DNA of 64,000 bases from Giardia intestinalis (lineage: Eukaryota): assembly GCA_000002435.2 (NCBI GenBank), contig CM018789.1; one strand, written 5' to 3'. Shown piece after piece: positions 10,165 to 15,592 of the stretch. Below the pieces are notes generated by a model. That model worked only from the letters and a program-made list of their open reading frames with translations, ran no database searches and was not told the DNA's origin. The translations under genes were made by a program, and so were the position numbers. Each line of letters starts with the position of its first letter. Position 1 is the stretch's first letter.

Positions 10165-11931
10165 ATGAATAAATATCAACTACAACAAATAATGCTCGAC
10201 TCGGCGGTCGTTAACGCTATCCTGGAGATCCTCAAGGCTATCAACGACAAGGCTGGAGTCGTAGAGCAAAAGGATGTTACACGCGCAAGCGCCCTAGTCG
10301 CACGTCAATACAGTCTGCCACAGGCACCCTCTGTTGCGGACATTGCGTCCTCTCTTCCAGCAGCTCAGAAGCTAGAGTTATCTAGCTATCTTGTGCGAAA
10401 GCCTATCAGGTCCGCCTCGGGAGTTCAAGTAATTGCAGTTATGTGTAAGCCCCATCGCTGCCCGCACCAGGTCCGTACAGGTGCATCGTGCACATACTGT
10501 GGCGGCGGGCCAGATTCCGATTTTGCCTACTCGACTCAATCATACACCGGCTTTGAGCCGACTTCGATGAGAGCTATTCGGGCGAGGTATGATCCCACGG
10601 AGCAGGTTCGAGTCCGGATGGAGCAGCTTAGGCAGCTTGGTCACACCACGAACAAGATAGAAGTTGTCCTCATGGGAGGAACATTTCTTTCGACGCCACG
10701 CTCTTATCGCGACTCGTTCATATCTGGCATCTACACAGGGCTGACGGGGCATATCCCAGCGGGTCCCAAGCGAAACATAGTCCCAGAATCAATTTCCTAT
10801 GCTGCTCGCTCGTCTATTAAGTGTGTTGCACTGACCATTGAAACACGTCCAGACTATTGCGAGCCGCGGCATCTAGCTGACATGCTGCGGTACGGAACGA
10901 CACGTCTTGAGATTGGTGTTCAGTCTGTCTACGATGATGTCTGTGGAGACATCAACCGTGGTCATACAGTGCGGAGCGTAATTCGCTGCTTTGGACAGAG
11001 TAAGGACGCCGGATTCAAAATGATTGCACACATGATGCCCAATCTTCCTTTTACAAGTACCTTTAGAGACATCTTTGGATTCCAGGAGCTGTTTCAGTCA
11101 ACAAACTACCGTCCTGACGGTCTGAAGATCTATCCCACGCTGATAATACGTGGCACAGAGCTCTATGAGCGCTGGCGTTTGAACAAGTACCTGCGTAACT
11201 TACCGACGCACAAGCTCATTTATTTATTAACCATCATCTATGTTTTAGCGCCCCCATGGGTAAGGATCTATCGAATAATGCGAGATATACCTCTGCCACT
11301 TATCTCTGCTGGCGTGGACTCGTCGAACTTACGCGAGCTTGCTCTGGCGTCCCTAGCACGCTCTGAAACACAGTCACTGGAAATCAGACAACGGGAGTCA
11401 GGAATTGTCGAAGCGGCTTCCAATGAAATGACTAAGAAGTCTCTATACACACAGGACGGAGGAAACGCCCGTGAGTCTTCTACTGATATTACCCCAGAGA
11501 TCTGTAGGAGAGACTACTGGGCAAACGGAGGTTGGGAGACCTTTCTCAGCATTGAGGCGCCAATAGACTTGGACACCACTCCTACCTCAAAGGCTCGAAC
11601 GTCTCCGCCTGTCCTCTACGCCCTGTGCAGATTGAGAAGACTTCCGCGAGGTGGCGGAGGGCGTTTTCTGGGCATTCGTCCAGAGCTACAGGGGAAGACG
11701 TCTCTGATCCGAGAGGTGCATGTATATGGTAATGCAGTGGGCTTGAGTGAGCGAGGAGTCAGTGTCCAACACAGAGGCTATGGGCGTATACTCGTCAGGG
11801 AGGCGGAGCGCATAGCCAGAAATGAGCACAAAAGCGTCAAACTTGCCATCATAGCGGGCGTTGGAACTAGGGAATACTACTCTAAATTGGGCTACGCCCT
11901 TGATGGCCCATATATGTCACGGACACTCTAG
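10165..11931 (+). CDS. ELP3: Elongator complex protein 3 (radical-SAM + GNAT acetyltransferase)
   Basis: Radical-SAM cysteine motif CPHQVRTGASCTYCGGGPDSDFAYSTQSYTGFEPTSMRAIRARYDP, the GGTFLS motif, and a C-terminal GNAT region (RGYGRILVREAERIA). Full-length collinearity with ELP3. Confidence 0.92.
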   Translation: MNKYQLQQIMLDSAVVNAILEILKAINDKAGVVEQKDVTRASALVARQYSLPQAPSVADIASSLPAAQKLELSSYLVRKPIRSASGVQVIAVMCKPHRCPHQVRTGASCTYCGGGPDSDFAYSTQSYTGFEPTSMRAIRARYDPTEQVRVRMEQLRQLGHTTNKIEVVLMGGTFLSTPRSYRDSFISGIYTGLTGHIPAGPKRNIVPESISYAARSSIKCVALTIETRPDYCEPRHLADMLRYGTTRLEIGVQSVYDDVCGDINRGHTVRSVIRCFGQSKDAGFKMIAHMMPNLPFTSTFRDIFGFQELFQSTNYRPDGLKIYPTLIIRGTELYERWRLNKYLRNLPTHKLIYLLTIIYVLAPPWVRIYRIMRDIPLPLISAGVDSSNLRELALASLARSETQSLEIRQRESGIVEAASNEMTKKSLYTQDGGNARESSTDITPEICRRDYWANGGWETFLSIEAPIDLDTTPTSKARTSPPVLYALCRLRRLPRGGGGRFLGIRPELQGKTSLIREVHVYGNAVGLSERGVSVQHRGYGRILVREAERIARNEHKSVKLAIIAGVGTREYYSKLGYALDGPYMSRTL

Positions 11932-12063
11932 CCCCCAGCCAGTGTAGTCAAGAACAAGCAAGGTACTATTTACTGATACAAAATTAGAGTTAAGACAGAA
12001 CACATACAAGCACATAGACACCTGTACACATAGATTTAGACGAATTTGGTAGGGTTTGTGCAA

Positions 12064-12972
12064 TTACTCATCGACCTGAGAGGACCTGAGAATGCGGGAC
12101 AGCGTGGACACAGAGATGACCCTAGTTAGGGTCCCACTGGTTATGAGCTCATCGAGCATCCGTGTCAATGACTTATTCTTATTTTTACACATCTCGCGGA
12201 TCATTGCTGTTTCTTCATCGCTTAGACCCTTTGGTCTCCCCAGCCTCTTGTTCTCATCGCGATTATTTGGTTTGATGCCTTTTAGTCTGATTATCCTGTA
12301 AACCTGGGAGCGCGAGACTCCAAATGTATTCATAATGGTTCTAATCGGCGTATCTTCCTTGTGCATATCCATGATTTTGCGCCAATCAGAGGCAGAGAGG
12401 CGTTTGTGTGTGTCAACTCTGGTGATGGGTTCAGTCTCAGCGGTAGAAGGGTCAGAGACAGCGGATTGTGGATAACCATATCTACTTCCAACCAAGGTTG
12501 TCCGAGGTGAGCCAGAAAATTGTCCGGGAAACACATTGTTAGGCAAGTAAGGATAACAGGAGATTCCCGGCTGTAGAGAGGGAATGGTGTGCGGCGCTCC
12601 TTGACAGATGCCTGTCGGCCAAATCCCAGGCAGATTGGACACATTAGGGAAGGCCCCTAGCCTAGCTATGCTGTTAGTCCCAAAGCTAGCAGGAGGTATT
12701 TGTTGGAGAGACTGCAGTGGAATGGTGGAAATGGCTGGCGATTGTGTAGCCCCGTTCAGATTCGGCAGCCCCTGGATGGCCGAAAGGGATGTTGTTCCAG
12801 GGTATGACACGCCTCCCAGCTGTATAACCGAAGAGGATGCTGGGTCGTCGCCTTGAACTGATCCTGTAACAGTGGGGAAAAGCTGCATATAGGCTTCTCC
12901 TTGCGATTGCTGAGTAGTGGCTGGATCTGGAAAGGTTGTTTGAGAGATAACTCCATAGAAGGACCCCTGCAT
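12064..12972 (-). CDS. Paired-/Tc1-type bipartite helix-turn-helix DNA-binding protein with P/Q/G-rich N-terminal region (Pax-like transcription factor candidate)
   Basis: The C-terminal 110 aa align residue-by-residue with the N-terminal paired-like DNA-binding domain of Tc1 transposases: first HTH TIMNTFGVSRSQVYRII, the GRPKGLSDEE linker, and second HTH SLTRMLDELI...RVISVSTLSRILR. The ORF stops immediately after the HTH, so no DDE domain follows. ATG at 12970-12972. Confidence 0.7.
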   Translation of the reverse strand: MQGSFYGVISQTTFPDPATTQQSQGEAYMQLFPTVTGSVQGDDPASSSVIQLGGVSYPGTTSLSAIQGLPNLNGATQSPAISTIPLQSLQQIPPASFGTNSIARLGAFPNVSNLPGIWPTGICQGAPHTIPSLQPGISCYPYLPNNVFPGQFSGSPRTTLVGSRYGYPQSAVSDPSTAETEPITRVDTHKRLSASDWRKIMDMHKEDTPIRTIMNTFGVSRSQVYRIIRLKGIKPNNRDENKRLGRPKGLSDEETAMIREMCKNKNKSLTRMLDELITSGTLTRVISVSTLSRILRSSQVDE

Positions 12973-13150
12973 AACCCAACCGCTTTATTATTTCAATTTA
13001 AATTAGACCAAGCAAAGCTGTTATTTCTCTGCTCTGAATTTTGGCGTTTAACATTCTTTTTCTAAATCCGACCTATATGAATGTTTACAGGATAGTATAC
13101 GTTTTCATCGTATAAAAACGCCAACGAGTTTTTTTTAATCGGACTATGGT

Positions 13151-14620
13151 ATGATCATCCAACACCCGGATTCCTGCGCCCTAGGCCTATCAAGTCCTGT
13201 GTGCAGCACAGTGCTGTGCATCCGTGAGATAATCGATATCATTGCAAATGCATGTTTACAGGATAAACATTTAGGCAAGAAAACACACACTCTCACGCTT
13301 TCTGACGCGAGTATTTTTTCTGAACCGCTATCTAAACGCTATCCTGCTAGAGACGCTTCCGTGGCTACAGACACCAGAGTTCGACACTGCCAGGAGCGTC
13401 CTAGCATCAGAGGTTGCACCACAGGAGGCATGGTAGCTGTGAACTGTAAGCTCGATGGCGGCAGGTTCATTACATTAACAATAGCAATCTCCGGCCTTCC
13501 TATCTCATGTGAAGAAGGTCAAAGACTGGCCAATCTTATCTTTTTGGACAACCACAAGGAGTGTGAAAGTAACGATAAGTTGTCACTACTTGAACGTTTT
13601 GTCCTGGATCTAAGGAGTGTGATTATATCTGCAAACAGATCTACCGGAAAGCCTGCCATCATTGAAATCCTTGATGCTGCAAGCAGGCTTCGATTTACGC
13701 TCCACATTCCTCAGAAGGACCTGCGCTACTGCGCACACTATACTCTGGAGGAGCCGGGCATGCTCCTTGAACTGGCACTTCCAATGGAGACAAGTCTCGG
13801 CAAAACCCTTAGGTCCTATCTTGATGCCCTGGCTCTAGGGTTCTTTTTCATTCTTCATCCCAGGATAGTGTTCTATGCTCCCGTGCTGGGGTTAAGCGAA
13901 GACTTTCTTCCTCGGTATCAACTGACAGCCGATGAGGATTATCTACGTACTACACTGGCTAGGCTATATAAAAAGGACCTTGTCGTTGCTACCAGTGACA
14001 CTTCCAAGAATGACTACTCTCTAGCTGTTTCCATTTGCATGTCGCCATCTTCAGAGCGCTTAGATCACTTTTCGGTGGAGTACTTGGTAGTAGTTAATAG
14101 CACACCATTGACAGGACTACGCTCTCCCTTATGTCCCACAGCATTGGAGAGTCTAGACTTCCTTGCGGAGTATGATATAACTCTCAATAGATTTGCTCTG
14201 GCTGATGAGCTTACTTTGGAGAGACCCTTTAGTTCATTTTACAGAGCAGCTCCTCAAGGTGGTGCACTAATAGAATCCTGTGTTATCGTTGTAGCCATTT
14301 ACTCTAACAATTGTGCAGGGTTTACAACTCCAGACAAAACGTCTCTGGTTGCTCATCCTGTCCTCTCCTCTGATGTACTGAATAACCTTATATCTGCCTT
14401 TTCGGAGTGCACGTCTAGATTTCCGTCTGGTTTGAAGAAAATAAGTGATCAGAAGCAGCAGCTGCAGCAGATGTCCATTAAGCATATCCTCGCCGACATA
14501 GGAGTACTCTCGTCACTTCTTTTAACTGAAGAGGAATCAAATGCATTCACTCGCAAACACCATGCCATGTCCCTTGAGGAGGCTATCTTTAAAGCTTTTT
14601 CGCCCATCTTAGGTGAGTGA
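13151..14620 (+). CDS. Hypothetical protein
   Basis: 489-codon ORF starting at ATG 13151 after a T-rich tract (ttttttttaatcgg...ATG). No recognisable motif. Confidence 0.5.
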   Translation: MIIQHPDSCALGLSSPVCSTVLCIREIIDIIANACLQDKHLGKKTHTLTLSDASIFSEPLSKRYPARDASVATDTRVRHCQERPSIRGCTTGGMVAVNCKLDGGRFITLTIAISGLPISCEEGQRLANLIFLDNHKECESNDKLSLLERFVLDLRSVIISANRSTGKPAIIEILDAASRLRFTLHIPQKDLRYCAHYTLEEPGMLLELALPMETSLGKTLRSYLDALALGFFFILHPRIVFYAPVLGLSEDFLPRYQLTADEDYLRTTLARLYKKDLVVATSDTSKNDYSLAVSICMSPSSERLDHFSVEYLVVVNSTPLTGLRSPLCPTALESLDFLAEYDITLNRFALADELTLERPFSSFYRAAPQGGALIESCVIVVAIYSNNCAGFTTPDKTSLVAHPVLSSDVLNNLISAFSECTSRFPSGLKKISDQKQQLQQMSIKHILADIGVLSSLLLTEEESNAFTRKHHAMSLEEAIFKAFSPILGE

Positions 14621-14659: not shown

Positions 14660-15592
14660 TCAGTCAGCTATCTCGTCGTGTCCCATGGTGATCGTGCACA
14701 GGTTTGGCACGTCTTCACGTTTATACTGGTTGAGGACAGACTTGCACTGACAAAGAACCTCTGGTTTTTCCAGATCGGTTGGAGATGGCTTGAATGTATC
14801 GCCTGTACCAATGCAGTGCCCAGTAGAGCAGTGCCGTATAACGACTGGCTGATCTACTAGCACTGGGTGGCCCTCCATCTCCAGTCTGACACTGGTGTGG
14901 TATGGTTCAATAACGAACTCTGCATCCTTGTGGAGACAGTTAATGTCTCCTATGACAGTGTGAATAGTAGAAGTATTTGCTGTCCTAACGCACCCTAGAA
15001 CAACCTGGCCGCAGCCCTTGTAACGATCAGACTCGTCTATCATGTCTTGGTTGCACGTTATGTAGACGCGCTCTCCGTAACGAACAGGGGCATCCTCCCC
15101 AATCATATTATTAGCAGACATAGTGGACATCTTTGTTTCATAATTAGCAAGCTCCTCGTCCTTGAAAAGGTACTTGAGGCGCTTGCCATATTTAAGGATG
15201 CCCTGGTCACTGACTGCGCTGTCTTGTGCCCGTGTGACAGTAAATACGGATCTTCGAATGGGGGCAATGTCCGATGTGAAGGAAACGCGACTTCCTCGAT
15301 CATACTCTTTAACCGCATATCTAGGGTCGCAGGCCAACATAAAAGGCTTTGTATTGTGATTGATAATCATAACACGATCGTTTGGGAAAAGAACCTTACC
15401 CTCAGCTAGCTCTACAGGCTTCAAGATGTTTTCCAGTTGCTTGATGACCTGGACCGACTTTAAGTCCCCTCTGGAGGCAGTATCAAGATACTTTGCAAGC
15501 ACCTCATCACGATAGGCCCGTTCCTCAACCCAGTTATTTATCATTGTTCTACATGAATAGATGTTCTGCACGACTCCTCCGAGATGCTGCAT
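14660..15592 (-). CDS. Hypothetical protein
   Basis: 310-codon ORF with ATG at 15590-15592 and an A/T-rich upstream region. No confident domain assignment. Confidence 0.5.
   Translation of the reverse strand: MQHLGGVVQNIYSCRTMINNWVEERAYRDEVLAKYLDTASRGDLKSVQVIKQLENILKPVELAEGKVLFPNDRVMIINHNTKPFMLACDPRYAVKEYDRGSRVSFTSDIAPIRRSVFTVTRAQDSAVSDQGILKYGKRLKYLFKDEELANYETKMSTMSANNMIGEDAPVRYGERVYITCNQDMIDESDRYKGCGQVVLGCVRTANTSTIHTVIGDINCLHKDAEFVIEPYHTSVRLEMEGHPVLVDQPVVIRHCSTGHCIGTGDTFKPSPTDLEKPEVLCQCKSVLNQYKREDVPNLCTITMGHDEIAD

Follow-up and report, generated by a model that had tools for sequence, protein, structure and literature searches.

Pax1 of Giardia lamblia is reportedly ORF 32686, said to have been described by Wang et al. 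in 2010 (J Biol Chem 285:32213). The name giardial Pax2 was given by Chuang et al. [quoted passage not shown] Like Pax2, Pax1 is small and nuclear, with a proline-rich N-terminus and a "paired-like" domain at the C-terminal end. It too binds AT-rich initiators and activates cwp genes, and was reported to be functionally redundant with Pax2; the two domains share only ~11% identity (PMC3280250).

In EMSA, recombinant Pax2 shifted double-stranded probes with the AT-rich initiators of cwp1-3, myb2 and ran, and it also bound poly(A) tracts, whether or not these carried T insertions. Scanning mutagenesis of cwp1 showed that the elements AGATC and AATAAA were needed for Pax2 binding, and distamycin A partly competed with DNA binding. 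Deletion of residues 172-302, or mutation of the basic residues in 185-205 or 226-248, reduced nuclear localization, DNA binding and transactivation. Overexpression of Pax2 raised the mRNA of cwp1-3 and myb2 ~3-fold and increased cyst formation, whereas ran and 18S were not raised. The levels of pax2 mRNA and protein themselves hardly differed between vegetative and encysting cells (PMC3280250). ERK1-associated complexes were reported to phosphorylate Pax2 (PMC3280250) and MBF1 co-immunoprecipitated with it (PMC7866390).

A Tc1-like transposase is regarded as the likely source of animal Pax (PMC4901127). In the same article, Buerglin and Affolter state that the relationship of Giardia "Pax" to animal Pax "has not been elucidated yet" (PMC4901127). 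In the paper describing Pax2 the word "transposase" occurs 0 times (PMC3280250).

An ORF with an ATG start and a 302-aa product was found on the minus strand of the 64-kb window, i.e., the whole stretch of Giardia intestinalis DNA that was analyzed (Table 1). When aligned with GL50803_0016640 / XP_001709128.1 of Giardia intestinalis WB, the 302-aa translation had no mismatch. A sequence-only reading of this DNA had proposed a Pax-like factor and had noted that Pax-like regulators of encystation are reported from Giardia; the ORF proved to be 100% identical to one of these, Pax2, and the BLASTP-type comparison with annotated Giardia Pax2 that it had suggested returned 302 identical residues out of 302. 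Length, sequence, domain boundaries (172-299) and the two basic stretches (185-205 and 226-248) all agree with the published Giardia lamblia Pax2. We conclude, with a probability of about 0.9, that the ORF is pax2 of a WB-type Giardia intestinalis (assemblage A). On this view pax2 belongs to the host, is single-copy, has been inherited vertically and encodes a transcription factor that binds DNA in the nucleus. The 2012 publication had already described this gene and domain, as well as how the protein binds DNA and how it is linked to cyst-wall gene expression; all of this is rediscovered here.

Many database gene calls for pax2 comprise 274 aa and start at Met29, leaving out residues 1-28 (12889-12972, minus strand). 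These residues (MQGSFYGVI...) are kept across Giardia lineages. Their conservation, together with that of the AT-rich initiator just upstream of Met1, suggests that the 302-aa start used in PMC3280250 is correct.

Table 1. Coordinates of pax2, its protein regions, candidate regulatory elements and neighboring genes within the window.
Feature	Position	Strand	Remarks
pax2 coding sequence	12064..12972	-	302 codons plus TAA stop at 12064..12066; = GL50803_0016640
N-terminal disordered S/P/G/Q-rich region, residues 1-185	12418..12972	-	composition, pLDDT ~30, no secondary structure
First HTH subdomain (PAI-like), residues 191-230	12283..12402	-	recognition helix SRSQVYRIIR; HTH_7
Basic linker between subdomains, residues 231-251	12220..12282	-	holds KRLGRPK; GRPK 245-248 at 12229..12240
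Second HTH subdomain (RED-like), residues 252-296	12085..12219	-	recognition helix STLSRILR; HTH_32
Conserved AT-rich initiator-type block, GTCTAATTTAAATTGAAATAATAAAGCGGTTG	12973..13008	-	directly upstream of ATG; AATAAA at 12984..12989
Second conserved block, TTAAACGCCA	13042-13051	-	~70-79 nt upstream of pax2 ATG
AGTAAAT, putative poly(A) signal	11968..11974	-	pattern match, 89 nt after stop codon
ELP3 (radical SAM / acetyltransferase), convergent neighbor	10165..11931	+	Pfam ELP3_N, Radical_SAM, Radical_SAM_C
489-aa ORF, divergent from pax2	13151-14620	+	no Pfam match
CFAP161-like flagellar protein gene	14660-15592	-	Pfam

The 36-nt block preceding the start codon was nearly invariant in assemblage A, assemblage B and a divergent lineage with 61% identity. 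The last 40 nt before the ATG contained 70% A+T, compared with 52% in the whole window. This block probably represents the pax2 core promoter. As a conserved AT-rich block with AATAAA, it fits the reported autoregulation of Pax2, which was found on its own promoter by ChIP (PMC3280250). No change was seen in the second conserved block between assemblages A and B and the divergent 61%-identity lineage, and the block may be a promoter element common to pax2 and the divergent neighboring gene. The putative poly(A) signal downstream of the stop codon follows the Giardia consensus AGTRAAY. A scan for bacterial promoters and terminators, which is irrelevant for a eukaryote, found nothing.

The 64-kb window contained exactly three copies of a 12-mer, GTTTACAGGATA (12292-12303, minus strand; 13083-13094 and 13254-13265, plus strand), all of them within 1 kb of pax2. 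About 0.2 copies were expected and none of 100 shuffles reached three. The copies lie in the codons of a recognition helix (QVYRII), in the intergenic region between pax2 and its neighbor and in the 5' part of the divergent 489-aa ORF; they are partly kept in assemblage B (1-2 mismatches) and weakly in the 61%-identity lineage. The motif was chosen post hoc from a repeat list and its clustering may be due to chance.

The N-terminal part of the protein is of low complexity. Residues 1-171 are composed of 12.9% S, 12.3% P, 11.7% G and 9.9% Q, and the sequence-only description of a low-complexity region held with the correction that it is S/P/G/Q-rich instead of P/Q/G-rich. AlphaFold2 assigned a pLDDT of ~30 to residues 1-190, which are predicted to be disordered. 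Conserved motifs among the orthologues nevertheless occur in the N-terminal region, including MQGSFYGVI and YPYLPN. The only Pfam domains found were the C-terminal HTH matches, and the domain spans residues 186-302 of 302. Composition and AlphaFold2 model agreed with the proposed order of a low-complexity region first and an HTH pair last. The protein likewise stops right after the second HTH as described, since its end at residue 302 lies six residues past the last helix (288-296).

The full-length AlphaFold2 model was too disordered for a fold search and the C-terminal domain was modeled alone. In this model, two three-helix bundles reached a pLDDT of ~80-87, the first formed by helices 194-201, 208-217 and 221-230 and the second by helices 252-261, 269-279 and 288-296. 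The intervening linker (231-251) was modeled with low confidence and contained a short extra helix at 240-243. Residues G245, R246 and P247 of the linker were invariant in all six Giardia-lineage orthologues, including that of G. muris. Pfam HTH_7 matched residues 193-227 (E 4.2e-7; 30.4 bits versus a gathering threshold of 23.8). HTH_32 matched residues 239-295 below the cut-off (E 1e-5) and was present in 6/6 orthologues. An IS630 transposase model of NCBIfam spanned both HTHs with its positions 4-107 of 299 (E 8.7e-6, far below the whole-protein cut-off). The IS630, IS481 and IS21 transposase models were all matched only in their N-terminal ~100 positions (E 8.7e-6 to 3.4e-4). The predicted two-HTH module in the C-terminal ~110 aa was thus recovered by HTH_7, HTH_32 and IS630 matches as well as by the two modeled bundles.

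HTH_7 is also matched by serine recombinases (resolvase/invertase). This class was rejected, as Pax2 has no Resolvase catalytic domain and its N-terminus is disordered and of low complexity. Sequence searches of the PDB gave marginal matches only (Sleeping Beauty PAI subdomain, E 0.03-0.4). The best PDB sequence match of the six-orthologue profile was the archaeal CRISPR-repeat-binding protein Cbp1 (2lvs_A; E 5.6e-4, residues ~200-270), and NCBIfam HTH_Cbp1 was matched with E 0.029. Cbp1 is a chain of HTH units with basic linkers, and the resemblance probably reflects a common HTH-linker-HTH pattern.

The profile of the six Giardia orthologues was compared by hhalign with two PDB-verified sequences, using 30 shuffles as a control. 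The DNA-binding domain of Sleeping Beauty was matched with a probability of 94.7-94.9% (E ~5e-8 to 6e-8, score 49 over 102 columns; shuffle maximum 17.7), whereas the PAX6 paired domain was matched with a probability of 10-14% (E 2-3e-3, score 23-24 over ~104 columns; shuffle maximum 15.6). The Sleeping Beauty alignment covered residues 6-108 at 28% identity with the GRP/GRR linker in register, so that GRPK at 245-248, to which the sequence-only reading had drawn attention, is aligned with the GRRR linker of Sleeping Beauty. Taken separately, the first HTH matched the Sleeping Beauty PAI subdomain with a probability of 90% (E 1.6e-6) and the second HTH the RED subdomain with 52% (E 1.5e-4). 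Significant HTH profile matches, on which the earlier interpretation depended, therefore exist in the form of the HTH_7, IS630 and hhalign matches. The model and Foldseek showed two three-helix subdomains (PAI, RED) with an extended linker, as in paired domains, and the bipartite HTH with a GRP-type linker characteristic of Tc1/mariner-IS630 was found as well. The C-terminal 110-120 residues are a bipartite HTH of the Tc1/IS630-transposase / paired-domain superfamily.

If Pax2 were truly orthologous to the Pax proteins of animals, the paired domain would be older than the metazoans. The fold comparison is consistent with this: the best Foldseek matches in the PDB were Pax5, Pax6, Pax8, Prd and Tc3, spanning both subdomains with probabilities of 0.94-0.99, and the first four are all paired domains, aligned over 111-119 columns at ~20% identity. 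The PAX6 score in hhalign also exceeded the shuffle maximum, Pax2 and PAX6 are 13% identical in the published alignment (PMC3280250) and a review cites the Giardia protein as a pre-metazoan PAX (PMC8290160). We nevertheless consider such orthology improbable. The sequence-only reading had named the Pfam PAX profile (PF00292) as a check: no match was obtained at E<=10 in the window protein or in any of the six orthologues. The far stronger match to Sleeping Beauty than to PAX6 in hhalign and the lack of Pax proteins among the matches of an exhaustive HMMER search point in the same direction. Moreover, the paired-specific N-terminal beta-hairpin has no counterpart: its motif (GGVFVNGRPLP) is absent, the sequence before helix 1 being ...RVDTHKRLSASDW, the PAX6 alignment begins at PAX6 residue 16, after the hairpin, and the AlphaFold2 model contains no hairpin before helix 1, with low confidence in this part. 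Finally, the domain is C-terminal, and neither an octapeptide nor a homeodomain was found in Pax2 by Pfam, in agreement with PMC3280250.

Judged by sequence, the domain clearly lies nearer to the DNA-binding domains of Tc1-type transposases than to the paired domains of animals, and it fails the tests by which a paired domain in the strict sense is recognized. Given the stronger Sleeping Beauty match and the missing Pfam PAX match, "Pax-like" is a loose label for what is a bipartite HTH of the Tc1/IS630 type. The Giardia "Pax" proteins may even be unrelated to animal Pax and descend from a Tc1/IS630-type transposase DNA-binding domain that was captured independently and long ago, before the split of G. 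muris and G. intestinalis, an origin to which we give an even chance. To our knowledge, no Tc1/mariner elements have been reported in the present-day Giardia genome.

Orthologues of the window protein were found in assemblage A2 isolate DH (99% identity), assemblage E isolate P15 (93%), assemblage B isolate GS (84%) and, from sequencing runs, in two further Giardia lineages (61-63%). The window shares the gene order CFAP161-like / hypothetical / pax2 / ELP3 with assemblage B and the 61%-identity lineage. Compared with this lineage, the HTH part showed a pN of 0.11 and a pS of 0.78 (saturated) and the N-terminal region a dN/dS of ~0.27, indicating purifying selection on both parts of the protein. 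CFAP161-like and ELP3 are ordinary housekeeping genes whose order is kept across Giardia lineages. The position of the 489-aa ORF also holds an ORF in other Giardia lineages (468 and 445 aa), and its product looks like a lineage-specific protein.

The exhaustive HMMER search covered 1.84 billion representatives. The whole architecture was common only to proteins of the Giardia lineage, among them G. muris GMRT_10103 (194 aa) and a 202-aa Giardia-lineage protein, both of which keep the R-x-G-R-P of the linker and the TLSR of the last helix unchanged. The DNA-binding domain, of transposase type but with no catalytic part, appears to have been fixed before G. muris and G. intestinalis diverged. 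The other ~50 matches were mostly multi-HTH repeat proteins of which single HTH units were aligned; the 25 Pfam families that they matched most often included none of DDE transposases. The best match outside Giardia was a 351-aa protein from sequencing-run assemblies, with four tandem CENP-B_N / pipsqueak-type HTH repeats and the motif ESTLYRIIK, which appears to be an unrelated multi-HTH protein. Pax1 was not identified among the few named matches of this search and is not encoded in the 64-kb window.

The nearest sequence relatives of the domain being transposase DNA-binding domains, the ORF might have no function for the host and be the decayed remnant of a Tc1/IS630-type transposon or a wrong gene call. 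The surroundings of the gene speak against this. The distance from the pax2 stop to the ELP3 stop is 132 bp (11932..12063), which confirms the ~130-bp gap given before and, with convergent ELP3 beyond it, leaves no room for a DDE domain. No DDE/DDD domain was matched by Pfam in the protein. In the 132 bp and the next 1.5 kb on the gene strand, which run antisense to ELP3, no DDE remnant was found (16-29 stops per frame). Flanking inverted repeats did not exceed chance-level matches of 12-15 nt with arms inside other coding regions; the pair 11934-11948 / 13949-13963 was rejected as transposon ends because its arms are 15 nt long and the second lies inside the neighboring coding sequence. The claim of missing terminal repeats thus survived the flank search suggested along with it. 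A second pax2 copy was not found in the 64-kb window (single tblastn match). The gene is syntenic in three lineages and under strong purifying selection, its ORF has stayed intact in all lineages, G. muris among them, and a protein of ~35 kDa was seen with a specific antibody (PMC3280250). Conservation, synteny and the detected protein effectively refute a transposon remnant, to which we assign a negligible probability. The identity with Pax2, the HTH matches and the lack of a DDE domain or terminal inverted repeats support the original idea of a domesticated transposase-type DNA-binding module or Pax-like transcription factor.

With regard to DNA binding by Pax2, the recognition helices SRSQVYRIIR and STLSRILR may contact adjacent major-groove half-sites, while the invariant basic GRPK linker would sit in the AT-rich minor groove in an AT-hook-like manner. 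The partial competition by distamycin supports such a position of the linker, and GRPK (245-248) falls inside the mutated stretch 226-248 of the published work. The disordered S/P/G/Q-rich N-terminus could recruit partners, acting as an activation/interaction region and as a target of regulation. A minor-groove role of the linker and a role of the N-terminus in transactivation and partner binding are suggested by these features. The role of GRPK in AT-rich minor-groove binding is a testable suggestion.

Support for a specific role of Pax2 in encystation comes from a single laboratory, in the form of overexpression and in-vitro EMSA. Loss-of-function data for Pax2 were not found in the literature searched, where the CRISPRi of PMC9295799 concerned PAX1 only. 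A possible, though less likely, alternative is that Pax2 acts as a general AT-rich/initiator-binding architectural or basal factor at many Giardia promoters and is no dedicated encystation regulator. Its constant expression in vegetative and encysting cells and its binding to the constitutive ran core promoter and to plain poly(A) tracts (PMC3280250) fit such a function; the latter suggests that its specificity may be low, and together they keep a general initiator-binding role a live rival. Giardia promoters generally use AT-rich initiators, the conserved putative promoter of pax2 itself included, and the GRP linker seems typical of low-specificity minor-groove binding. Against a general function stand the selective effect of overexpression, which raised cwp1-3 and myb2 and did not raise ran or 18S, and the need for the two specific elements AGATC and AATAAA (PMC3280250). 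Given the constant pax2 levels, measuring expression during encystation, as the sequence-only reading had suggested, would not discriminate.

The comparison with known systems bears on whether "Pax" existed before animals, and herein lies the main remaining value of the result. The animal paired domain (PAX6, PAX5, Prd) is likewise a bipartite PAI+RED domain and likewise occurs in transcription factors, but it is N-terminal and often accompanied by an octapeptide and/or a homeodomain, whereas the domain of Giardia Pax2 is C-terminal and accompanied by neither. In Tc1/mariner and IS630 transposases (Sleeping Beauty, Tc3) the DNA-binding domain is also N-terminal and, in contrast to these mobile elements, Pax2 has no DDE/D domain, inverted repeats or mobility and is encoded by a single-copy syntenic host gene. 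CENP-B and SETMAR are host proteins too, in which a transposase-type double HTH was kept for sequence-specific DNA binding. They derive from other transposase lineages (pogo and Hsmar1, respectively), have no specific sequence similarity to Pax2 and ranked lower in the fold lists. Should the capture in Giardia have been independent, the case for a Pax older than the animals would lose its support, and a transposase double HTH would have become a developmental regulator twice, by convergence, with Giardia as the second instance.
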